From an uncultured Nitrospiraceae bacterium (GTDB taxonomy: Bacteria; Nitrospirota; Nitrospiria; Nitrospirales; Nitrospiraceae): a stretch of 64,000 nucleotides of DNA. A program made the position numbers and the translations under genes. Location of the stretch: contig CAWJWJ010000001.1 of the NCBI GenBank assembly GCA_963846575.1, positions 1 to 64,000 on the forward strand, in the 5' to 3' direction. How positions within the stretch are numbered: position 1 is the stretch's first letter; every line of letters begins with the position of its first letter. Below the pieces are notes generated by a model. The model did no database searches. It saw only the letters and a list, made by a program, of their open reading frames with translations, and had not been told where the DNA came from. Below are positions 1 to 10,464 of this stretch, one piece after another.

Positions 1-495
1 TACTTCGGGAGTCGAGAGAGTCAAACGATGCTCCGTGTCTATGACAAACGCCTAGAGCTCCAGGCCAGAGGCCGAGAAGACGCGGGCTTGTACGGCGTCC
101 GATGGGAACTGGAATTCAAACAGGATCGCGCCCAAGCCTGCGCGAAGGCCCTCCTCACGCTCGATCCGGAAGATTGGCGGGCCTTCTTAGTCGGCGTGCT
201 GCGTTCCTATGTGGATTTCCGAGAAACCACCCGAGAGGCGGAATCCTATGAAAAGTATCGAGCGCCGTTGGTGAGCTGGTGGAAAGCCCTCACCGAAGGC
301 TTTATGCGATGCCGACTCGTCGTCGAACGCATCCAGCAACGCCTTGATGACGTGGCCGCCTGGCTGGCGAATGCGATCAGTCCTATGTTGGCGGTGGTGG
401 TCGCCTGTCGAGGGGATCAGTTTCTGTTCGAGATGATCTATGCAGGTACCAAACGATGGACACAGAAGCACTATGCGTTGCTGAAAGCAGCGTAA
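1..495 (+). CDS. Rolling-circle replication initiation protein (Rep_trans family), 5'-truncated by window
   Basis: Frame 1 is open from base 1: YFGSRESQTMLRVYDK...RWELEFK, matching the YxGS...R.YDK...RxExE signature of Rep_trans. Confidence 0.85.
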   Translation, partial: YFGSRESQTMLRVYDKRLELQARGREDAGLYGVRWELEFKQDRAQACAKALLTLDPEDWRAFLVGVLRSYVDFRETTREAESYEKYRAPLVSWWKALTEGFMRCRLVVERIQQRLDDVAAWLANAISPMLAVVVACRGDQFLFEMIYAGTKRWTQKHYALLKAA

Positions 496-509
496 GCGAG
501 GGACCCCCT

Positions 510-730
510 ATGTCCTTAGAGTTTCATAACGGATCGTGGCGACGCATGTGTCCAGGATGTGGAACCAGAGGTTGTCGGTGCAAGTGGGTACAAGGCGCCC
601 TGTATCTGAGCTGTACGGCATGCGATTCGGAATTCTGTCTTAGGCCAAAAGCCCGGTCCGAAGGCCGGGGCGTGTGGGTCAGGCGCTTGGCTGACTCGAA
701 TTCATTCATATTGAGGAGGGTCGACGATGC
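510..730 (+). CDS. Small Cys-rich putative Zn-ribbon protein (end uncertain)
   Basis: ATG 510 after GAGGG; CPGCG and CTACD motifs. Confidence 0.4.
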
Positions 731-991
731 AAGTCAAAGCGGAGGGTGCGGTGCAGGGGTATGTGGAACGGAGGAGCCGGGGAGGGGGAGGTCTACCGAT
801 CGGTGGACTTCTATGTGAAGGGCCGAGATCCGGGGGTGCTTCGATTGGGGATTCCGGACGATCAGATGCCTTGATCGACGTCTGCAAGCAAGCCGAGGGG
901 AAGCAGGCGAAGTGCGTCGATCGAAGTGCGGAAGTTCGAACAGACGGGCGGCGTCTTCTTCGATTTGTACGGATTGGAAGTCTTGAAATAA
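727..991 (+). CDS. Putative ssDNA-binding protein (pV-like), frameshifted in this sequence
   Basis: GAGGAGG RBS; joined frames read MQVKAEGAVQGYVERR..VYRSVDFYVKGRDPGVLRLGIP..IEVRKFEQTG..FFDLYGLEVLK*; ~87 aa beta-rich protein in the canonical position after rep. Confidence 0.55.
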
Positions 992-1011
992 CGGCAGAGG
1001 GAGGAAGGCCA

Positions 1012-1087
1012 GTGGATCTCACCATTATTCTCGTGGCGGTCTTGTTACTGGCCTTCCTCGCCGGGCCTTGGAGTCGGACGGATGTGA
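1012..1087 (+). CDS. Tiny single-TM minor coat protein candidate (pVII/pIX-like)
   Basis: GGAGGAAGG RBS, GTG start, MDLTIILVAVLLLAFLAG...; one apparent indel. Confidence 0.45.
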
Positions 1088-2348
1088 AGGTGATGTCGCT
1101 CATGACGTATCTCGGTTTGTCTGGGCCTTTCGTCTCACTTGTGCGTGGCGCCGGGTGAAGCCTTCGCCATAACCGCAGACGCAGTATTCGAGGGTGGTCG
1201 CTCAAGCCGAACGCATTGCCTACCTGGCCGCACACGGTCCGCGCTCGCCGGTCAGGTCGCCTCAGCTGCGTGGCGCCCTCTGCCGCCTCGTTGGCCGTCC
1301 GCATGGTCGCCGGCCCGGTTGGCTGGGCGGCCCTCGGTGTGGGGGCGGGTTTGGTCCTGGCTCAGATGTATTACTCACAATCCGACCTCTCGGCAATCAA
1401 GTCGGCGGCCTCGACGCCGGGCGGCTGGCAAGTCACGAGCAGCAATGCCGGCATGCAGACCTTTCCGGGTCTGGGGACGAATACTCCGGCAATCCCGGTT
1501 ATCCCAACGCGAGCATTCAATTCAGCGCGACCAATGTCCCGCTCTGTGCGGTCGATTCAGAATATCAGCATGATTGGATGGTCGGGACCGTTTCAGAGCA
1601 TCAGCACGGCCGTGTACTTCTCCGGCAACTTCTTCGTCAATGGCCCGCCGGTCGGGGGACACAGCCTCTATGTCTGCCATCGAAAGGGCATCCCGGGTGA
1701 GCCTGCTCCCCTGCAAGAGCCTCCACTCCGCCGACGCAGCAGCAGGCGGCTAACTATGTTCGGGGCCTACCGGCGAAGTCGATCCGAAGTCCATCGAAGC
1801 CCATACGAATCCCGTCGGGACCACGGGCACGACCCAACCGGCGGACAACACCGTCTCGCAGCCGGTCTCGCCGAGTGAGATGCCGACCACGGTCAAACCG
1901 AAGCCGGTGCCTGCCGGGGATATCTCGTGGTCGACAACGTCCCCCCTCCGGCCAGTACGCCGCAGCAGAACACGCAACAGCAAACCACGACGACGACCAC
2001 GACCACGACCCAGAATCCCGACGGCTCGACGACGCAACAGGAAGAAACCCAGGCCACCACGTCCTGTACGGCCGGGGCACATGAAAACCGGACTTTCGGG
2101 ACCGTTCTGCAAGCGCATCAAACCATCTGGGCGACGAGCGGCTGCTCAGTACGCTGAATCTCCTCAAGTCCCTCACCTGGCCCTCGACCTTGCCGGTGAT
2201 TGCGCTGCCGTCAGCGTTCTTCGGCAGCCAGCACGTGGATTTCAATCAATGGGCCTGGTTCTTCACGGTGCTCCGCACATTGGTCATCGCGCCGCGTCCA
2301 TTGCCGCCTACCGCATCATTTTTGTCGGGAGGCCAGACCAGCTCATGA
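1085..2348 (+). CDS. pIII-like adsorption/minor coat protein, multiply frameshifted; boundaries approximate
   Basis: Pieces in ORFs 1194, 1216 and 1927: signal-like N-terminus, GPVGWAALGVGAG, Pro/Thr-rich linker (QQQTTTTTTTTTQNPDGSTT), C-terminal ..VDFNQWAWFFTVLRTLVI..ASIAAYRIIFVG anchor. Confidence 0.65.
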
Positions 2349-2622
2349 CCGCTATTCTGACGCTCATCTATTGCTGGCTGCAGGAGTTCTTCTTCTCCCT
2401 CACCGATTGGGGACTCGGGCATCTTGGGACTCCCTGCTCTCCGTGGCGGACAGCACGCTCGCGACCCTCGGCACGGCAGGCCTCACCCTGCCGGTGATTC
2501 CGGATCAGTACGCGTGGGTGCTGGGCGCGACGGGCATGAGTCAGGCGCTGGCCATCGTGGCGAGCGCCATGGGGACGCGGTTCATTCTGCAGACCATTCC
2601 GTTCGTCCGGTGGGGCTCATGA
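2345..2622 (+). CDS. pVI-like minor coat protein, one frameshift
   Basis: MTAILTLIYCWLQEFFFSLTDWG..WDSLLSVAD..YAWVLGATGMSQALAIVASAMGTRFILQTIPFVRWGS*; ~92 aa hydrophobic protein between pIII-like and Zot genes. Confidence 0.7.
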
Positions 2623-2706
2623 ACCAGCTCGTGATCGGGCTGGGCCTATGCCTGGACCGTCGTCTTAGCCCTGTGGATCTGGGTGTATCTCAGGAGTCTT
2701 CGATGA
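2619..2706 (+). CDS. Tiny hydrophobic peptide, coupled to both neighbours
   Basis: ATGA overlaps at both ends; reconstructed MNQLVIG.WAYAWTVVLALWIWVYLRSLR*. Confidence 0.35.
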
Positions 2707-3710
2707 TCGAACTGTATGAAGGCGTGCCAGGCTCGGGCAAGTCGTATCACGCGATCTGCGAGAAGTTCCTGCCCTGGGTGAGGCAAGGCCGGCGACTCTA
2801 CATCGCGGTCGATGGGATCTATCTGGATCGGCTGGCGCTGTTCACCGGCATCGAACTTGCCGACGCTCGAACAGCAGATCACGATCTGGAAGGATTCCGT
2901 GGAAGTCCTGCAGGCCTTTCCCCATGTCGAACCGGGCTCAGCCGTCATTATCGACGAAGCGCAAACCGTGTTTCGGTCGATGCAGAAGGTGGAGCCAGGT
3001 CTCCTCCGCTGGCTCGAAACGCATCGGCATTACGGCGTGGATATTCTGCTCATGAGCCAGGACTTTCGCCAGATGTCGCAAGGCGTCACCCGGCTGATTG
3101 AAGCGACGGTGAAGTTTCGCAAGCTGGCCTTTGTGGGTCTCGCGAAAAAGTATCAGGGCAAGGTGCGGGGGAACCCGGAAGACCACGAAGTCATCCGGGC
3201 CTTCGTCGGGACCTACTCGCCGGCCATCTATGCCTACTATTCGAGTTACGCGTCGGCAGCGATCCGAGAAGAGAAACGCAGCCATACCGTCTTCAAGTCG
3301 GCGCGGGTGGCGATCGGTATTGCGGTGGGCTGTTTGCCATGTGGCCTCATGGTCTGGCGGCCCTGGTCGTCGCTGGGCAGCACGAAGGGAGCTGCCGGCA
3401 ACAGCGGAGTCACCGCACGACTGACTCTCTTGCCCTCGGCATCGGCGCCGGGCAGTCTGCGTGAATCCCTTGGGCGCGTCGATCCCCTGTAGCCGACATC
3501 CCGTCACTTCCCAAACGCCCCGTGCGCATTCTCGGCGGCGCCGGCACGTCGTCGAATCGTCAGGGCTGGCGCTATCTCTTGGACAGCGGGGAGATCCTCA
3601 CGGCGGCTCAGATCACGGGACGGTATGGCGTCGTCGTGTCGGAAGTCTATGAGGAGGGGTCGATGCGGCTGATCGGCGAAGGAGTGTTCTATGGACCCGC
3701 CGGCGATTGA
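2703..3710 (+). CDS. Zot-like / pI morphogenesis ATPase, frameshifted
   Basis: MIELYEGVPGSGKS (Walker A), VIIDEAQ (Walker B), ETHRHYGVDILLMSQ motif, then a TM segment; ORFs 2424, 2812 and 3522 join. Confidence 0.9.
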
Positions 3711-3711
3711 G

Positions 3712-3795
3712 ATGATGACTTACTTCACGGCGATCTTCTGGCTCGGTGGTTTTGCCGTCGGCCTGATCATCAAGTTGATTCTGCCTCAGCACTGA
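3712..3795 (+). CDS. Tiny single-TM protein (minor coat candidate)
   Basis: Intact 27-aa ORF MMTYFTAIFWLGGFAVGLIIKLILPQH* directly after the Zot stop. Confidence 0.5.
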   Translation: MMTYFTAIFWLGGFAVGLIIKLILPQH

Positions 3796-3875
3796 GCTAC
3801 TGAGGCGCTCGACCGTCGGCGAGGATTCCGGCGGCGTGGGTGGACGTGACCACCAACAGCACAAGGAGGTGCGGT

Positions 3876-4089
3876 ATGAAGGGATGGGGTTGGGTCGAAG
3901 GGGCTTGGGGGCGTGCTCATGGCGTTCGTGTTCGCCCTGGGCGTCCCGGCGCTGTCGCAGGCGCAGTTGTTTCCGGTGTCGGCGGATGTGGCCACGGTGC
4001 GGGCCGATCTGCTCTTGTGGGCCACGGCCCTGATCGGCGTGGCGCTGGCGATCTACGCCTTTAAGCGCGTGCGCGCGATTGTGGGCTAG
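3876..4089 (+). CDS. Major coat protein (pVIII-like) with signal peptide, one extra base near the 5' end
   Basis: AAGGAGGT RBS; MKGWG..GGVLMAFVFALGVPALSQA / QLFPVSADVATVRADLLLWATALIGVALAIYAFKRVRAIVG*: leader, amphipathic N-terminus, TM, basic C-terminus. Confidence 0.8.
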
Positions 4090-4102
4090 GAAGAGCCCGA
4101 TC

Positions 4103-4133
4103 GAGGCAGGCTGGCAGCAGCCTGCCTCCTTTT
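4103..4133 (+). terminator. Intrinsic terminator after the major coat gene
   Basis: GAGGCAGGCTG-gcag-CAGCCTGCCTC (perfect 11-bp stem) followed by CTTTT. Confidence 0.75.
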
Positions 4134-4180
4134 CTCGCATCAAGACAGGATCAGATGGGACCGGCAAAGGAGTTGCACGG

Positions 4181-4309
4181 ATGACGGCGCAACAGATTCA
4201 AAACATCGGGAACGCGTTGGCCACCGACCTGGTCGCCTGGGGCACGGCCGCGATCGGGCTCGCCTTGGTAGCCGCCGGAGCGGCCTGGGTGTTGCGGCTG
4301 CTCCGCTAG
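4181..4309 (+). CDS. Second, leaderless major-coat-like protein (42 aa)
   Basis: AAGGAG RBS; MTAQQIQNIGNALATDLVAWGTAAIGLALVAAGAAWVLRLLR*; shares DLxxWxTAxIGxAL with the preceding coat protein. Confidence 0.65.
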   Translation: MTAQQIQNIGNALATDLVAWGTAAIGLALVAAGAAWVLRLLR

Positions 4310-4809
4310 GCGCCAGGCCAGCCCTGGTCGGCGAAGCTGTAGTAGCGGTCTTCAGCGAGGATGAGATGGTCCAGCAGCGGAATGCCGAACAGATCGGCCG
4401 CTTCGCGCAGCCGTGTGGTCAGGACGCGATCTTCGGGGCTGGGCGTGATGTCGCCAGAGGGGTGGTTGTGCGCAGCAAATCCAGGCGCCGGCATTCATCA
4501 GGATCAGCGGTTTGAAGACTTCGCGGGGATGGACAATGGCCAGGGTGAGCGACCCGGTGGACACCACGTTGATGCCGATAAGCCGATGCTTCGCATCCAG
4601 GCCACAGACCAGGAACTGTTCCCGGTCCAGACCGGCGAACAACGGACGCAGGAGCTCCGCAGCGCCCTCCGACGTCGTGATGGACTCCGCGCGGGAATGG
4701 CACGGCCCTCGCGCACGAGCGTGACACGGTACCGAGGCACTCCGTAGCGGGATGTCGGGCTCAGTGGCCGTCCACCGTTCGAGGAACCGAGAGAGCTATC
4801 AACGGCCAT
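4306..4809 (-). CDS. radC: RadC-like JAB/MPN domain protein, two apparent frameshifts
   Basis: DREQF..VHPREVFK..AHNHPSGDITPSPED..LLDHLI motifs; AGGAGG RBS before ATG at 4809. Confidence 0.9.
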
Positions 4810-5053
4810 GTGCGCCTCCTTCTTCATTGCTATGTAGCCCCACCCTTCACACACCGAGGGTGGGGCGTAGAAGAAGAGGCGGCACGGGGCTCTCGCAGCG
4901 GGCAGGCCTGGACGAACGGACGGGAAGGCCTGACCCCTGCTCTCCAGCCACGAGACGCACCAGAATGGAAACGTTTTCTGAGTCTGTTTTCGATGAAATC
5001 ACCAGACCAATGAGTGCACGGGATGTTGAGGGCCTTCACGATTGGAACTAGCC

Positions 5054-5380
5054 ATGCAGATGTTGTTGACCGTCAAAGAAGTATCCGGATGGCTGAACGT
5101 CAAGCAGTCCACGCTCTACCTGTGGGTGTCACGGGGCAAGATTCCCTATCGTCGATTGAACGGACTGATCCGCTTCGAAACCCCTGCCATCCAGGCTTGG
5201 TTGGATGGATCGCCCCGCCCCCATTCGCCCGTGTCGTTTGGCCGGCGCCCCCAATTCCAAACAGTCGATGCGATCATTGAAGCCGCCAAACGCGAGGTCT
5301 ATACTCCCCGCCACGGGGAAACCAGACCGAAATCAGGCCTCATCGGAAAGGAGGAGCAGGATGGGGCTCACGAAGCGTAA
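5054..5380 (+). CDS. Excisionase-like HTH (HTH_17) protein
   Basis: LLTVKEVSGWLNVKQSTLYLWVSRGKIPYRRLNGLIRF; directly upstream of the integrase. Confidence 0.85.
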   Translation: MQMLLTVKEVSGWLNVKQSTLYLWVSRGKIPYRRLNGLIRFETPAIQAWLDGSPRPHSPVSFGRRPQFQTVDAIIEAAKREVYTPRHGETRPKSGLIGKEEQDGAHEA

Positions 5381-6442
5381 TGATGTATGGTGGATGAGTT
5401 TCATGTATCAGGGCCGGCAAGTTCGTCGAAGCACCGGGACGAGCAAGAAGCAATTGGCCGAAGCCATCTTATGCCAAGGTGAAGGTCCAGATTGCCGAAG
5501 GTCAGTTTTTCGAGCGGCGTGAGGAACAGGAGCGCACGTTTCAAGGAGCTGATGGAACGGTACGTCGCGGAACGAGCCACCCTGAAAGCGGTCAAAAGCC
5601 GTTTGCGCGATCATGCCGCGCTGGGACATCTCCTCCCTGTGTTGGGAGAGAAAGTCTTAGCCCACGATCACGCCGAAGGTGATGGCCAGCTACAAGGCGC
5701 AGCGTCGGATAGAACGAGCGGCTCCAGCCACGATCAACAAGGAGCTGCAGCTTGTCCGGCATGCCTTCAACCTGGCCATGCGGGAATGGGAATGGTGCCG
5801 GGAAAACCCGATGCACCGGGTCTCCATGGAACAGGTGAGGAATGAAGTGGACCGTTGGCTGACGGCCGAGGAAGAAGACCGTCTCATGGCCGTGTCGTCA
5901 CCCTGGCTTCGAGAGATCATCGGTCTTTGCCCTTAATACCGGGCATGCGGCAAGGCGAGATCCTGAACCTGCAATGGCAGGATGTGGATTTCTACGCGGG
6001 GAACCCTGATCGTGATGAAGAGCAAGAACGGCACACGCCGCACCATTCCCCTTGAACACCACGGTCTATGAACTCCTGGCCGCGAAACAGGCCGCGAGCC
6101 GGACGTCATCGTGGACCGGTGTTCAAGACGCCGCTCGGCAATCTCCTCCAGGTGCGGTTTCTGGTGCGGGAGTTTTGTGAGGCGCGCGATCGGGCCGGAA
6201 TTCCGGATTTCCGCTTTCACGACATGCGGCACACGTTCGCCACGCGATTGGTGCAACGCGGGGTCGATCTCTACAAGGTCCAACGGCTGCTCGGTCATAA
6301 GACCGGTATGATGACGCAACGCTATGCGCATCATTCGCCGGAGAGCTTGAGAGACGGTGTGAAGGTGCTGGATGAGTGCCAACCGCAGCGAGTTAGCACA
6401 AATTTAGCACAAGGGGCGGTTTCTGAAGATTTCGAGGCGTGA
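5361..6442 (+). CDS. Tyrosine recombinase/phage integrase, multiply frameshifted
   Basis: Joined frames give GMRQGEIL, SKNG, FRFHDMRHTFA, LLGH and TQRYAH, so all catalytic motifs are present; GGAGGAG RBS. Confidence 0.92.
6393..6412 (+). repeat. Direct repeat TTAGCACAA x2, candidate integrase arm-type site
   Basis: 6393-6401 and 6404-6412, ~60 nt from the tRNA 3' end. Confidence 0.45.
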
Positions 6443-6468
6443 ATGCTTCGTAAGTCATTGATTTTAGA

Positions 6469-6544
6469 TGGTGAGTCGGCTGGGATTCGAACCCAGGACC
6501 CTCGCCTTAAAAGGGCGATGCTCTACCAGCTGAGCTACCGACTC
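6469..6544 (-). tRNA. tRNA-Lys(UUU); probable integration target
   Basis: GAGTCGGTAGCTCAGCTGGTAGAGCA-TCGCC-CT-TTT-AA-GGCGA-GGGTCCTGGGTTCGAATCCCAGCCGACTCACCA, 76 nt with encoded CCA. Confidence 0.97.
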
Positions 6545-6655
6545 TCCTGAACACTTATAAAACACATCGTCTCGCGCATGGCGCGACGGGGGATCATACC
6601 ACCGATGCTTGATAGTTCGCTATGGCAGCGATGTCGGAAGAATATTCTTTGTACG

Positions 6656-8058
<1,403 letters not shown>

Positions 8059-8060
8059 TC

Positions 8061-8089
8061 ATGGTAGGACCCGTCTCTCGGTTTGTCAA
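8061..8089 (-). promoter_or_regulatory. sigma-70 promoter for purA
   Basis: TTGACA-17 nt-TACCAT on the minus strand. Confidence 0.7.
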
Positions 8090-8300
8090 GCTAGGTTTTC
8101 TCATTCTGCCAATCCATCCATGAGATACGACCACCCGGCAACTACCCTTTGCTCACTAGCCATCTCTCGACACTCCCCTGCGATCGTGACAATCAGCAGT
8201 TCTGGGCAGACTTACCCATCTATCCGGACACACGCGTACCTGAAAATACTGCGCGCCACCTCCGAAGCCTGCGGGGATGATTGAAATCTCAAGCCTTTTC

Positions 8301-8330
8301 TTGACTGAGAAAAACAGGCCGTGCTAGATT
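8301..8330 (+). promoter_or_regulatory. sigma-70 promoter candidate for tRNA-Ala
   Basis: TTGACT-18 nt-TAGATT with an extended TG. Confidence 0.45.
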
Positions 8331-8397
8331 GCAGAGTTACATCTGCAGCGGTTGCCTTTTTTTCCGTGCCTGTGCACATGTAAATGCAAGCCTGTGT

Positions 8398-8473
8398 GGG
8401 GCTGTGGCGCAGTTGGGAGCGCGCGTGAATGGCATTCACGAGGTCGCCGGTTCAATCCCGGCCAGCTCCACCA
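8398..8473 (+). tRNA. tRNA-Ala(GGC)
   Basis: GGGGCTG..CAGCTCC-ACCA acceptor with G3:U70; anticodon arm CGTGA-AT-GGC-AT-TCACG; GGTTCAATCCC T arm. Confidence 0.96.
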
Positions 8474-8622
8474 AACAACGCTTGCTCGAGAACACTCCGA
8501 CTGTGTGCGGGATGCCTCCTCACATAGGCCTATGCCGACCGCGCTTAACAAGCGGACGCTGACAGGCCATGACGGCGGCCCTGTCGAACTTTTCACCCAA
8601 TAATACACACTACTCGTAATCC

Positions 8623-10464
8623 ATGCTTCAGCTCGAGTCCGTCCATAAGCAATTTGCCACGAAGGTCCTGCTCGAAGGAGCCACCGCTCATCTGCGTCCT
8701 GGCGCACGCGTCGGCCTCGTCGGGCCGAATGGTGTCGGGAAAACGACGCTCTTCCGGATGATTCTGGGAGAAGAATCCCCTGATAAGGGGTCCATTCGCA
8801 AACGCCCGCGACTGCGGATCGGGTATCTCCCGCAGGAATTGGAAACCATTGTCGGAAAAACGGTACTGGACGCCGCGCACCGGGACCTGTACCCGGAACA
8901 TGAAGCCGAACGCATTCTTTCCGGCTTGGGATTCTCGGAAGCTGATTTCGTGCGACCGATCGAGAATCTCTCCGGTGGATATCGCATGCGAGTCGCGTTG
9001 GCGCACCTGCTGCTATCCAATCCCGATGTCCTCATGCTCGACGAGCCGACGAACCACTTGGACAAACCGACGCAACGGTGGTTCGAGCGATTCCTTCTCG
9101 ATTCGAACCTCACGCTACTGGTGATCAGTCACGACACGAAGTTTTTAGACGGTATTGCCACGCACATCTGGGAACTCCGGGACCGAACCATTCAGGAATT
9201 CCGTGGGAACTATACTAAGTTTCAGGAATTGCGCGCAGCCCGCGACGCCCAGATTGAGTCTGCCGCTACTCGGCAGAGCAAAGAAGTAGCCCGCGTCCAG
9301 AATTTCATCGATCGCTTCCGTTACCAGGCGAATAAGGCCAAACAGGTTCAGTCGCGCATCAAACAGCTCGACAAGGTAAAGCTGATCGAGCGACAACGCG
9401 ATAACAAACGCGTACGCTTCAAGTTTCCCCTTCCTGCGGCCAGCGGACGCCATGTCCTCGAGCTGAAAGGCGTCGCCAAAAGCTATGGAGAGAAGGTCAT
9501 TTATCGCTCTCTGGACTTCACGGCGGAACGCGGCCAGCGGATCGCGCTGGTCGGTGAAAATGGGGCCGGCAAGAGTACGCTCCTTAAAATCCTGGCCGGG
9601 GTACTACCCTTCGAAAAGGGATCCCGCCACGTCGGCCATGGAGTCACGCTGCACTACTTTGCCCAGCATCAAGCGGAGTCACTGAGTCCGGAACATACGA
9701 TTCTCGAATCATTAGCGGAGGTGTCGGCACGGGCGGAAATGAATTTTCTGCGCGGCATTGCCGGTGCGTTTTTGTTTTCCGGTGATGACCAGAAGAAACC
9801 GATCAAGGCACTCAGCGGTGGCGAACGAAACCGCGTGGCCCTTGCTCGCATGCTTGTAGAGCCAGCGAATACCCTGCTTCTCGACGAGCCGACCAACCAC
9901 CTGGATCCCGCCTCGGTGGATATGTTGACCGATGCCTTGACTGATTTCCCCGGCACGATTGTGTTCATTTCGCATGACCCGACCTTTCTTACCCGCGTCG
10001 CCACATTGGTGGTCGAAGTCGATGAGGGCCAGGCGAAGAATTATTTCGGGGACTACGAATACTTTCTCTGGAAGAAAGCCCAGGAATTCGAATCGATTAA
10101 GGAATCGAGCGCGGAACTCGGCGCCGCCCAATCCGGGAAGGCCGCGGGACCGACGAAGGCCATGGCATCACAGGTTCAGCCGAAGATTGAAGGCGGGGAG
10201 CGACGAGATCTCACCAAGACTCAGGCGCGACTCGAAAAGCAGGTATCCCGCGCAGAGGCCGACATCGCCTCCATGGAAACCAAAGTGAAAGCCCGCGAGC
10301 AGGAATTGAGCGATCCCGCGTTATACCAGGAATTCAACCGATGGGGTGAGTTACAGCGAGAGCAGGAGGGGTGGAAGAAAGAACTGGAGCGGCTCACCGC
10401 GCGCTGGGAATCGTTATCGGAAGAACTGCAAGGGGTGCGGGAAAAACTGACTACGGCGGGTTAG
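8623..10464 (+). CDS. ABC-F family ATPase
   Basis: Two NBDs (GPNGVGKT/LSGG/DEPTNHLD; GENGAGKS/LSGGE/DEPTNHLD), no TM segments, C-terminal coiled coil. Confidence 0.93.
   Translation: MLQLESVHKQFATKVLLEGATAHLRPGARVGLVGPNGVGKTTLFRMILGEESPDKGSIRKRPRLRIGYLPQELETIVGKTVLDAAHRDLYPEHEAERILSGLGFSEADFVRPIENLSGGYRMRVALAHLLLSNPDVLMLDEPTNHLDKPTQRWFERFLLDSNLTLLVISHDTKFLDGIATHIWELRDRTIQEFRGNYTKFQELRAARDAQIESAATRQSKEVARVQNFIDRFRYQANKAKQVQSRIKQLDKVKLIERQRDNKRVRFKFPLPAASGRHVLELKGVAKSYGEKVIYRSLDFTAERGQRIALVGENGAGKSTLLKILAGVLPFEKGSRHVGHGVTLHYFAQHQAESLSPEHTILESLAEVSARAEMNFLRGIAGAFLFSGDDQKKPIKALSGGERNRVALARMLVEPANTLLLDEPTNHLDPASVDMLTDALTDFPGTIVFISHDPTFLTRVATLVVEVDEGQAKNYFGDYEYFLWKKAQEFESIKESSAELGAAQSGKAAGPTKAMASQVQPKIEGGERRDLTKTQARLEKQVSRAEADIASMETKVKAREQELSDPALYQEFNRWGELQREQEGWKKELERLTARWESLSEELQGVREKLTTAG

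Follow-up and report, generated by a model that had tools for sequence, protein, structure and literature searches.

The window (the whole stretch of 64,000 nucleotides that we analyzed) corresponds to positions 1-64000 of contig CAWJWJ010000001.1 from an uncultured Nitrospiraceae bacterium (GCA_963846575.1). It begins within a small temperate inovirus that has a Rep_trans initiator, an Ace-like coat protein, and Zot (Table 1). Specifically, we found a Zot/pI ATPase (PF05707), a rolling-circle initiator (PF02486), members of phrog_197 and phrog_453, and an Ace-like protein (phrog_306). About 5.5 kb is common to the copies of the element, and the integrase module is added to this; an inovirus genome is expected to be 5-8 kb. 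There are four paralogous copies in this genome. Throughout the family, the gene order is a regulator, Rep_trans, the coat genes, Zot, a terminator, one reverse-oriented cargo gene, the hairpin module, and an exchangeable integrase. In the window, Rep_trans is truncated by the start of the contig, and full-length copies are present elsewhere in the genome (Rep of copy D belongs to phrog_453). Zot is in pieces at 2661-2861, 2854-3480, and 3456-3707, as judged by alignment to the intact protein of copy D (phrog_197, E = 1.5e-46).

Table 1. Features of the inovirus element and its flank, in window coordinates.
Feature	Position	Strand	Evidence
Rep_trans rolling-circle initiator, C-terminal part	1..495	+	PF02486, E = 6.6e-22, profile positions 59-190 of 201
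Zot-like pI morphogenesis ATPase, three frame pieces	2424..3707	+	PF05707 in two ORFs
Intrinsic-terminator-like hairpin that closes the plus-strand gene block	4103..4128	+	11-pair stem, then T run CTTTTCTCGC
42-codon ORF, small hydrophobic protein with a basic tail	4182..4309	+	Read from sequence
radC-like JAB gene, interrupted	4306..4809	-	PF04002 in the C-terminal piece, E = 1.9e-20
Hairpin 1, basal 5' arm; contains the complement of the radC Shine-Dalgarno (SD) sequence, CCTCCTT (4815-4821)	4810..4825		Sequence and DNA folding
A+T-rich one-sided bulge ATTGCTATGTA, unpaired on the radC-template arm	4826..4836		DNA folding
Hairpin 1, inner stem-loop; 10-bp G+C stem and 10-nt loop beginning TCACA	4837..4866		Sequence
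Hairpin 1, basal 3' arm; run of purines resembling the SD, GAAGAAGAGGCGGCAC, the would-be anti-SD partner	4870..4885		Sequence and DNA folding
Spacer with invariant TCGC core, CTCTCGCAG	4886..4898		Invariant columns T100, C101, G102, C103, and G105 of alignment A1
Hairpin 2; CAGGCCT/AGGCCTG core and GCAG.GGG/CCC.CTGC extension	4895..4940		Sequence and DNA folding
Conserved tail GCTGCTC...CGCACC, up to the junction with the exchangeable integrase module	4941..4964		Homology of the four copies stops at 4920-4964
Excisionase-type HTH_17 gene of the integrase module	5054..5380	+	PF12728, E = 9.5e-10
Tyrosine integrase, three frame pieces	5205..6442	+	Arm-DNA-bind_2, Int_N, and Phage_integrase in three separate ORFs
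tRNA-Lys(ttt)	6469..6544	-	ARAGORN

The tRNA-Lys(ttt) gene is the probable target of integration. Copy C and two IMG/VR contigs also have homologues of the HTH_17 gene after their hairpins, and within one genome, four different recombinase modules are attached to the hairpin module. Three Rep-Xis-Int mini-elements of the genome contain Rep_trans and have no copy of the hairpin. On the other side of the module, the stop codons of the 42-codon ORF and of radC overlap (CTAG, 4306-4309). A profile search gave no family match for the 42-codon ORF; homologous small ORFs are present in two relatives (L248 and L252, see below). The sequencing runs gave small shares only, and we drew no habitat from them.

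The original prediction described radC as the only recognizable minus-strand gene of the element, and among the 29 ORFs that we scanned in positions 1-10464, no other one on the minus strand has a family match. The start codon is on the minus strand (CAT at 4807-4809). The gene is not one open frame: compared with copies B and C, it has a 1-base deletion near 4690 (-1) and a 1-base insertion near 4487 (+1), and three frames are required to read it. Overall, radC is interrupted in two of the four copies in this genome and is intact in copies B and C (167 amino acids in copy C). Zot and the integrase of the window copy are split as well, and so is the nearby purA, which is single-copy in the genome. 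Because radC, Zot, the integrase, and the sole purA are all split, the breaks may come from decay or else from consensus errors close to where the contig begins; an assembly artifact is possible.

The C-terminal piece of the window's radC includes HNHPSGD and scores 73.4 bits against PF04002 (cut-off of 22.1), and the intact proteins of copies B and C score 133.6-133.8 bits. Across 76 RadC sequences, the metal-binding motif HNHPS..D..PS.ED is at least 90% conserved, and the gene is under purifying selection (median dN/dS of 0.17 across 1297 pairs). These proteins belong to PHROG 10276, and the closest solved relative is PDB 2QLC (E = 1.5e-20). The inovirus RadC aligns to positions 88-211 of a 212-position RadC model, with a score under that model's cut-off, so the N-terminal part of the chromosomal RadC is missing. 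There was no match to RadC in PADLOC, and the sole match in the plasmid collection was to 62 nt of the radC coding sequence. A RadC family of six sequences (iPF_01453 of Roux et al. 2019) is listed among inovirus proteins with the function “Unknown” in supplement file 6 of PMC6813254. Elsewhere, RadC domains are described in polyvalent proteins that belong to conjugative elements (in a passage of PMC5512222) and have been tied to competence regulons (in references cited in PMC12826799). Our literature search found no description of an inovirus radC with a fixed reverse orientation behind a conserved hairpin.

The hairpin module (4810-4964) lies between radC and the integrase module and not at the end of the prophage. 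Both of the predicted hairpins, including their arms, their cores, and the adjoining start codon of radC, can be read directly at the positions in Table 1. In hairpin 1, the arms of the inner stem are GCCCCACCCT (4837-4846) and AGGGTGGGGC (4857-4866), and the 3' arm reads AGGGTGGGGCGTAGAAGAAGAGGCGGCAC. The ribosome-binding site was claimed to be inside the stem, and the complement of the SD is indeed in the basal stem. In hairpin 2, the core pairs CAGGCCT (4903-4909) with AGGCCTG (4926-4932), and the loop ranges from 16 to about 45 nt among relatives, which differ by indels. The inner stem-loop has a single copy per phage and is absent from the rest of the genome. The hairpin stretch is 65% G+C, and the bulge that separates its two stems is the sole segment rich in A+T. 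When we folded 4800-4970 as DNA, as the original prediction had proposed, both hairpins formed on either strand (-42.5 kcal/mol and z = -3.90 for the plus strand; z = -3.74 for the minus strand; none of 200 shuffles was as good in either case). For the minus-sense RNA, z was -2.72, and 4 of 200 shuffles were as good.

We considered several familiar identities for these hairpins. A terminator reading was rejected, as there is no T run on either strand. A leader peptide or other ORF within the module was rejected because the minus-strand ORFs there begin outside of the conserved part. An integron attC site or a dif/XerCD-type single-strand site was also rejected: inspection by eye revealed no motifs like their core sites, and the presence of four unrelated recombinases beside an identical module counts against such a site. 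The module has no Rfam family, and there was no match to it in the phage DNA collection. The matches listed from a scan with a loose pattern for the inner stem included G+C-rich hairpins of unrelated high-G+C bacteria.

The hairpins are conserved in homologs. The 160-nt module, searched for alone, has matches in 87 of 371 genomes from the host family, from 10 of 39 genera. In a sample of the order, 47 of the 159 genomes from the host family had a match to the module, and none of the 141 genomes from three sister families did. The expectation that relatives would share the orientation of radC was also borne out: the hairpins adjoin a reverse-oriented radC at 93 of 95 related loci, and radC is reversed at all nine of the Zot loci in five genomes. 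Alignment A1 of the module has 22 invariant and 42 nearly invariant columns, and the adjoining codons of radC are variable. For example, in the inner loop, C55 and C57 are invariant and A56 is nearly invariant, and CTGCTC in the tail is nearly invariant as well. The Zot proteins of the same clades are merely 46-50% identical. That the module keeps these columns while Zot has diverged this far favors recognition by conserved host machinery over recognition by phage proteins.

The base pairing of the hairpins is under selection. Among the relatives, 95.1% of the paired cells in the alignment can pair, versus 40-58% in slid controls, and six pairs show compensatory changes, which was equalled by 0 of 500 shuffles. 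In the inner stem, 98.4% of cells are paired and 3 of 10 pairs have compensatory changes; in hairpin 2, the corresponding values are 92.8% and 3 of 14 pairs. For the basal stem, the two arms of a sequence pair better with each other than swapped arms do in 80 of 90 cases, and better than shuffled arms do in 89 of 90 cases, and the SD side covaries with the 3' arm (for instance, CCTCCTTC/GAAGGAGG versus TCTCCTTG/CAAGGAGA). In 83 of 88 sequences, at least four of the five bases of the SD complement are paired; the basal stem of one clade also takes in the start codon of the reverse gene. The bulge is asymmetric: across 90 relatives, its 5' side has a median of 12 nt (range 5-20), its 3' side has a median of 2 nt, and the 5' side is the longer one in 90 of 90. 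It is also rich in A+T (0.76, versus 0.35 for the whole stretch). Overall, the hairpins are a real and conserved control module of a family of small filamentous prophages. The original prediction had asked whether the hairpin arms covary among relatives, and they do.

Among the 40 Zot loci that we fetched, two that were long enough to judge (L248 and L252) lack radC. Both have a different small Cys-rich reverse gene in its place, and both keep a diverged G+C stem-loop (8-9 pairs, with a TCACA-type loop) and a stem that occludes the SD. In L252, the occlusion is rebuilt in another topology (AGTGCCTC...GAGGCACT); in L248, it is rebuilt more weakly. That SD occlusion was kept in a different topology suggests a role at the RNA level. 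The module is conserved independently of its neighboring genes, as it is found with a different reverse gene and with four recombinase modules. It is an element of the phage backbone and is not specific to radC.

For the analysis of strands, we assumed that the plus strand of the window is the packaged strand. This strand is sense for Rep and Zot and is the template for radC. We found no promoter-like sites (sigma-70-like -35 and -10 hexamers) on either strand of 3900-5300, and the hairpin stretch has no A+T-rich UP element upstream of a -35. In PMC11541004, candidate promoters of the Frpo type are called by hexamers like TTGACA at -35 and TATAAT at -10, with a spacing of 16-18 nt within the stem, and by an UP element. 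As the hexamers are absent, the module does not fit this type of promoter. A sigma-54-like GG...GC pattern was rejected as its spacing is wrong (judged by eye).

Other indications of strand were mixed. By free energy, the plus strand gives the more stable hairpin 1 in 41 of 90 sequences and the minus strand does so in the other 49, and the counts of G.T pairs in free folds (82 vs 93) show no strand preference. If the structure is fixed, the count leans towards the plus strand (92 G.T versus 26 A.C cells, and 10 versus 6 pairs), with most of the cells coming from a few clades. At four-fold sites, on a plus-strand basis, the skew of G over C is +0.084 in Zot and +0.077 in radC, versus -0.033 in the host; this fits exposure of the plus strand, and the A/T skews contradict it. 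The skew profile of the window is weak. Contigs from four RNA libraries cover the relatives' radC and both hairpins in all 30 bins; this coverage is blind to strand and to transcript ends and may reflect carry-over of DNA. The depth of these contigs falls beyond 4934, which is where conservation ends, and we draw nothing from this fall. Finally, in a ranking of structure along the phage plus strand, which was computed without shuffles, the terminator-like hairpin at the end of the gene block is among the top three places, and the strongest structure is not the radC module but a cluster of hairpins at the junction of the regulator and Rep. This cluster could hold one or both origins.

As the best explanation for these observations, we tentatively propose that the module is a host-recognized start site for the complementary strand, joined to a leader that occludes translation. 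While the plus strand is single-stranded, its hairpins would stay folded, host enzymes would begin the complementary strand at them, and RNA synthesis would head towards radC. In RNA that reads in from upstream, the anatomy suggests that the basal stem would pair the SD of the cargo gene with the SD-like copy about 50 nt upstream. This would mask the ribosome-binding site, so that only RNA that starts inside the hairpin, past the anti-SD arm, would be translated. The position of the module after the morphogenesis block and the terminator supports this proposal, as Ff phages have their packaging signal and minus origin after the morphogenesis block. Several observations argue against it. Occlusion of the SD requires an RNA that includes the 3' arm, and we found no promoter upstream of this arm. 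The minus origin of Ff has sigma-70-like hexamers, which we did not find here. And the strand tests are neutral, with the strongest plus-strand structure lying elsewhere. In a bolder form, the complementary-strand origin would double as a promoter-independent start in the bulge of hairpin 1; an mRNA with a short leader would yield the RadC-family JAB protein, or, in some relatives, a small zinc-ribbon-like protein, before the duplex forms, and the same stem would silence read-through. We think that this bolder form is unlikely.

The module might instead be a device of the RNA only, that is, a structured 5' leader of 155 nt in a reverse-gene mRNA made from duplex DNA, with no role in replication or packaging. 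Its basal stem would then throttle or insulate translation, by standby-site control or by IS10-like protection from read-through. The SD, and in one clade the AUG, is always in the stem and covaries with the partner arm; the occlusion that is rebuilt in L252, and more weakly in L248, is sensible only for ribosome access; and the SD is directly preceded by an A/U-rich stretch that would serve well as a standby site. The contigs from the RNA libraries fit as well, within the limits on strand and DNA carry-over given above. But there is no promoter upstream within the conserved stretch, the wobble count for the fixed structure leans towards the plus strand and not the mRNA strand, and the inner stem, the CAC of the loop, and two single-stranded motifs are more invariant than a translational throttle would need (given Zot proteins at 46-50% identity and two cargo genes). 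We consider this explanation possible but rather doubtful. The silencing that the original prediction had listed as an alternative has the occluded SD in its favor, even in a different topology, and the missing promoter upstream of the 3' arm against it. The original prediction's main idea was that hairpin 1 is a promoter on the entering single strand, from which the host RNA polymerase makes translatable radC mRNA before the second strand is made, with RadC as the first phage product and an aid to establishment. The computational checks that it had called for were all either favorable to it or neutral: the orientation of radC is right and conserved, and the hairpin is conserved and covaries. 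In addition, radC is under purifying selection (median dN/dS of 0.17), and RadC domains are otherwise linked to elements that enter as single strands (PMC5512222 and references cited in PMC12826799). The geometry of the template is also suitable. In each of the 90 sequences, template bases are left exposed by the bulge between two duplexes (a median of 12, about the size of an open-complex bubble), and an RNA begun at its downstream edge would have the SD without the anti-SD arm. However, the would-be non-template arm has neither -35 and -10 hexamers nor a UP-like element, and as the bulge is only 2 nt long (median) on its non-template side, there is no -10 strand available. Furthermore, the module precedes a non-RadC gene in two relatives, radC is broken in two of the four copies in this genome, RadC has no match in PADLOC, and the occlusion of the SD also speaks against a simple promoter. 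Such a promoter seems improbable to us.

Two other explanations were considered. One is that it is a packaging signal, or a plus-strand origin in which Rep_trans nicks the loop of the extruded G+C stem-loop. The packaging signal of Ff is an imperfect hairpin just after the morphogenesis block, and here an imperfect hairpin of about 76 nt directly follows that block. Similarly, initiators of the pT181 type nick in the loop of an extruded stem-loop, and here the initiator belongs to the Rep_trans family and there is a G+C inverted repeat that is perfect and whose loop has an invariant motif. Yet both functions need phage proteins, and these, unlike the stem-loop, are strongly diverged; immediately in front of Rep there is another hairpin that is stronger, just as conserved, and better placed; and the three Rep-Xis-Int mini-elements have Rep_trans without the hairpin. 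We consider this quite unlikely. The other is that the 10-bp inverted repeat, with its 10-bp spacer, is an operator in duplex DNA that is bound by a dimeric regulator of the reverse gene. The repeat is perfect and is at the would-be -35 position relative to the A+T-rich segment, and coevolution with a dimer would also yield symmetric changes. But T.G intermediates occupy the closing pair in 21 of the 90 sequences, and further one-sided changes to G.T are seen; both fit nucleic-acid pairing better than protein half-sites. Also, the HTH proteins of the phage differ between copies that have an identical repeat, and each phage has just a single site, with no others in the genome. An operator is highly improbable.

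That filamentous phages have hairpin-rich intergenic regions, and that RadC appears in one catalogue of inoviruses, is already known. What is new is the precisely conserved architecture, in which the most conserved non-coding hairpin of the phage has the ribosome-binding site of a reverse cargo gene as its base. This architecture occurs in roughly one in four genomes of one bacterial family, with interchangeable integrases and occasionally with other cargo. At 155 nt plus a 167-codon gene, it is a small system that can be cloned, and it bears on two questions: whether single-stranded phages express genes from the entering strand, as plasmids do, and what RadC-like JAB proteins do upon entry of single-stranded DNA. 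If the bolder form of our proposal holds, then the widespread RadC would gain a defined setting, the entry of single-stranded DNA, which conjugation and competence have in common with it. Should the module be no more than an origin and a translational lock, it would still be a tidy overlap of replication and expression signals in a genome of 6-7 kb.

Several known systems resemble parts of this module. Like the Frpo/ssi elements, which are from the leading regions of plasmids, the phage module has a long imperfect hairpin on the presumed entering strand, directly before a gene that is templated by that strand, and the region equivalent to the -10 is incompletely paired. Judged by their described features, the module differs in having no TTGACA- or TATAAT-like hexamers and no UP element, and its stem is G+C-rich, has only about 30 pairs, and includes the SD of the gene. 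The RNA from Frpo doubles as a primer, as the title of the 1997 paper by Masai and Arai states (cited in PMC11541004). The minus origin and packaging signal of Ff (f1/M13) are likewise adjacent hairpins of the plus strand that follow the morphogenesis genes (if plus is the packaged strand here), and only host enzymes are needed. Priming at the Ff minus origin is antisense to the plus strand, which here is the direction of radC. In Ff, there is no gene downstream in the direction of priming, whereas here the base of the hairpin overlaps a translation start; and unlike the Ff origin, the radC module has no elements like a -35 or -10 and is followed by an integrase module. In PMC7948647, initiation at the M13 origin is described as resembling that at a promoter and as independent, in part, of sigma region 4.

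At the RNA level, the module has what is expected of a leader that sequesters a ribosome-binding site, namely an SD or start codon in a stem whose arms covary (83 of 88 and 80 of 90 sequences, respectively). In the fold-back control of IS10 and IS50, an upstream arm that is complementary to the ribosome-binding site silences read-through transcripts of the transposase. The radC module also has such an upstream arm, and a start inside the repeat would escape silencing; in contrast to IS10 and IS50, its stem encloses a separate invariant stem-loop, and the gene behind it is the cargo of an inovirus. The cargo itself resembles the short RadC-like JAB proteins (PF04002) of other mobile elements: the inovirus RadC consists of the JAB domain only, with the motif HNHPS..D..PS.ED.

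The contig begins within an inovirus-like prophage, which is truncated by the contig start inside its Rep_trans gene (the window covers the contig's first 64 kb). PHROGs identified a replication initiator, an Ace-like minor coat protein, a Zot-like protein, an integrase, and a "DNA repair" (RadC) protein in an intact paralogue. As originally predicted, radC is the sole recognisable minus-strand gene: no further minus-strand ORF of the element has a family match. At 4306–4309, the palindrome CTAG provides the overlapping stop codons of radC and of a 42-codon plus-strand ORF. Beside the start of radC is a conserved non-coding stretch, the module, with two hairpins. Hairpin 1 has a basal stem that includes the Shine-Dalgarno (SD) sequence of radC, a bulge, and an inner stem.

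Features of the prophage and of related elements (G, genome; C, contig; L, fetched locus; G000 is the genome of the window)
Feature	Location	Strand	Remark
Rep remainder	1–495	+	then unannotated plus-strand ORFs
Zot-like pI gene	2424–3707	+	split
Terminator-like hairpin	4103–4128
42-codon ORF	4182–4309	+	hydrophobic
radC	4306–4809	-
Two hairpins	4810–4940		conserved tail on to ~4964
HTH_17 excisionase gene, tyrosine integrase, tRNA-Lys	right of hairpins, in this order		integrase in three pieces
purA (adenylosuccinate synthetase)	6656–7977	-	just past prophage; two frames, break near 6930–6960
Four paralogous inovirus prophages, G000	C2:436561–441792; C2:1344108–1349918; C2:2085420–2090953; window 1–4964
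Three small Rep_trans + excisionase + integrase elements, G000	C1:850109–852163; C2:524897–527000; C2:129293–131382
Cys-rich reverse gene, L248 (G123:C8)	~1830–2006		orientation with Zot on +
Cys-rich reverse gene, L252 (G347:C265)	1785–1970		orientation with Zot on +

The original prediction overlooked that the window's radC is spread over three frames. Relative to its paralogues, it has lost one base and gained one base, at sites about 200 nt from each other. The Zot and integrase genes are likewise split, as is purA, which is single in the genome. Because all four genes are broken, we suspect indel errors in the consensus over the contig's first 8 kb; alternatively, this radC may be a pseudogene. 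The genome has three further copies of the prophage (88–91% identity), with radC intact in two and frameshifted in one.

Homology among the four copies ends at window positions 4920–4964. Rightward of each copy is a different recombinase and then a tRNA-like stretch: two copies have an excisionase with a tyrosine integrase, one has a 433-aa integrase, and one has a large serine recombinase. Two IMG/VR contigs have the same order of radC, hairpins, excisionase, and integrase. These borders place the hairpins not at the end of the prophage but between the reverse gene and an integration module that is exchangeable. The four recombinase modules are all joined at one point (...CGCACC), which looks like integrase swapping that would allow several copies to coexist. 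The three small elements in the table have no morphogenesis genes, radC, or hairpins, and their xis-int parts are 68–76% identical to window 5069–6411. The strongest plus-strand structure of the phage is just before the Rep start in the other copies, B, C, and D (e.g., oriented coordinates 3990–4140 of copy D). This structure, a candidate plus-strand origin, has within it a conserved CCCCCG-11 nt-CGGGGG stem-loop. At the left ends of copies B and C, 3–4 tandem TGTCCCC-type repeats are found at the homology start, upstream of a small HTH gene; these may be iterons or part of an attachment site.

Both the hairpins and the orientation of radC proved to be conserved. The 160-nt non-coding stretch alone was found in 87 of 371 genomes (at most two places were scored per genome), from 10 of the 39 genera of the family. 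The Zot-like protein is spread equally (68 of the 371 genomes, again in 10 of 39 genera). When the order was sampled, the stretch was present in 47 of 159 genomes from the host family versus none of 141 from three other families. When we searched with radC and the hairpin DNA together, 136 of 201 sampled family genomes had matches (a tally that takes in the unpublished G076), the majority to radC only. We assembled 95 loci: the four copies in this genome, 29 loci from the radC-plus-hairpin search, two more fetched from the same search, and 60 of the 125 places listed for the 160-nt stretch, which were chosen to cover genera and are not a random sample. In 93 of the 95, the hairpins have a radC homologue starting immediately to their left, in the same arrangement; the exceptions are L223 and a locus that is cut by a contig end. 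Similarly, in five near-complete genomes, all nine Zot loci have an opposite-strand radC at 1.1–1.5 kb. In 76 of the 95 loci, radC remains open over at least 150 codons and has the HxHP motif; the other 19 include four long ORFs that fail only the motif filter and three cut by contig ends. The median dN/dS of radC is 0.17 (1,297 of 2,850 pairs had usable dS). By these measures, radC is a working gene in the lineage.

A few loci are disrupted. In L269 (G116:C1:3657481–3661724), radC is in two pieces separated by about 2.2 kb, as an inserted element would leave it. In L276/L054 (G101:C17:122000–131000), Zot is separated from the hairpin-bearing radC by another radC piece, which is divergent, and by a 504-codon ORF; we take the start of this ORF to resemble a group II intron reverse transcriptase. 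L051 (G132:C1:926770–926840) is a module remnant that lacks radC; the 5' arm of its inner stem is degenerate, and it resembles the product of a truncating deletion with one end inside hairpin 1.

We also fetched the downstream DNA of 40 further Zot loci. Twenty have radC and the hairpin core, radC runs into the contig end in five, it is interrupted, fragmentary, or divergent in three, and ten are too short for judgement. The remaining two (L248 and L252) are long enough and lack radC. In its slot is a Cys-rich (CxxC...CxxC) reverse ORF of 59 or 61 codons, with the integrase on the same strand. The two ORFs are weakly similar to each other (29% identity over 45 residues, E = 1.4e-4). In both, the ORF has its SD before it in a small stem and, further upstream, a G+C stem-loop whose loop again begins with (T)TCACA. 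Since these structures are kept before a gene other than radC, the module is part of the phage backbone and would serve any gene in the reverse slot.

Re-reading the sequence, we found all of the predicted hairpin coordinates to be correct. Either strand of 4800–4970 folds as DNA into the two hairpins (z = -3.90 and -3.74; in neither case did 200 shuffles give a fold as good). Of the 95 loci, 92 contain the full stretch (three are too near a contig end); after merging two identical pairs, we aligned 90 distinct sequences. The arms covary: six of the 24 pairs in the inner stem and hairpin 2 have changed on both sides, and none of 500 shuffles reached six. For instance, at the inner stem's second pair, 78 sequences have C-G and 10 have T-A, and at its closing pair, 38 have T-A, 30 have C-G, and 21 have T.G. 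Overall, 95.1% of 2,156 cells in these stems are standard pairs, versus 40–58% if partners are slid by 1–3 columns. Because of indels, the basal stem was scored per sequence and not by column. Its arms pair better with each other than with arms swapped between SD contexts (80 of 90 sequences) or with shuffled arms (89 of 90). The ribosome-binding site is indeed inside the stem, with at least 4/5 of the SD complement paired in 83 of 88 sequences; in one genus, the start codon is within the stem as well (GCCAT/ATGGC). The bulge has a median of 12 unpaired bases (range 5–20, 76% A+T) on the radC-template arm and of 2 on the opposite arm; in all 90 sequences, the 5' side is the longer one. In the alignment, 22 columns are invariant and 42 nearly so, while Zot proteins from the same clades are only 46–50% identical.

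What might the module do? Complementary-strand synthesis on the entering strand is the sole step of the inovirus cycle known to use host enzymes alone, and in the filamentous phages f1 and M13 (Ff), the packaging signal and the minus origin come after the morphogenesis genes. That the stretch is far better conserved than the surrounding phage proteins, and occurs beside four unrelated recombinases, fits recognition by conserved host machinery. Host enzymes would start the complementary strand at the module on the entering single strand, and priming at such an origin would run in the radC direction. The SD stays occluded as the arms covary, and its occlusion recurs even in another topology, which only ribosome access seems to explain; this argues that RNA containing both basal arms must exist at some stage. 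The basal stem would then hide the SD and silence translation of read-through RNA. Given the conservation, the direction of priming, and the SD occlusion, we tentatively favor a dual use of the module, as a complementary-strand start site and as a translational silencer.

The minus-sense RNA of 4800–4970 has identical pairing (z = -2.72; 4 of 200 shuffles were equally good). A purely RNA-level leader is a somewhat unlikely account of the module. Free-energy and wobble comparisons are even between strands, and four-fold-site skews are ambiguous as to the folding strand. With the structure fixed, there are 92 G.T versus 26 A.C cells, at 10 versus 6 pairs, but most of the cells come from a few clades. 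RNA-library contigs, which carry no strand or end information, span the hairpins of relatives. The original prediction went further: RNA started on the single strand would itself be a radC mRNA fit for translation. The bulge is bubble-sized, and passages of PMC5512222 and PMC12826799 associate RadC with DNA entering in single-stranded form, but promoter elements are absent, and we consider this unlikely. Frpo-type promoters, the hairpin single-strand promoters of plasmid leading regions, are described in text from PMC11541004 as a hairpin plus -35, -10, and UP elements. We found no such hexamers on either strand of 3900–5300, and the arm that would be non-template is rich in purines and in G, which rules out a promoter of this type as so defined. 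A packaging signal or Rep nick site is improbable, as a stronger, conserved hairpin cluster lies directly before Rep, and a duplex operator is more improbable still. A terminator was rejected because the hairpins have no T run. Searches with the module found no Rfam family, no match among phage records, and nothing in plasmids past a short radC match.

In supplement file 6 of PMC6813254, RadC appears once among the inovirus protein families (iPF_01453, with 6 sequences and "Unknown" as its function); the terms JAB, DNA repair, and intergenic are absent from the main text. In a Pf-phage paper, RadC is named only in a figure legend on neighbouring genes. Our literature search, which paired RadC with inovirus, filamentous phage, leading region, or ssDNA promoter, turned up no study of the arrangement (bioRxiv supplements were outside its scope and might hold more). 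Intergenic origin-type regions of inoviruses are a known kind of element; what differs here, and appears to be new, is that a candidate region of this type is fused with the point where translation of a conserved, reverse-oriented cargo gene begins.
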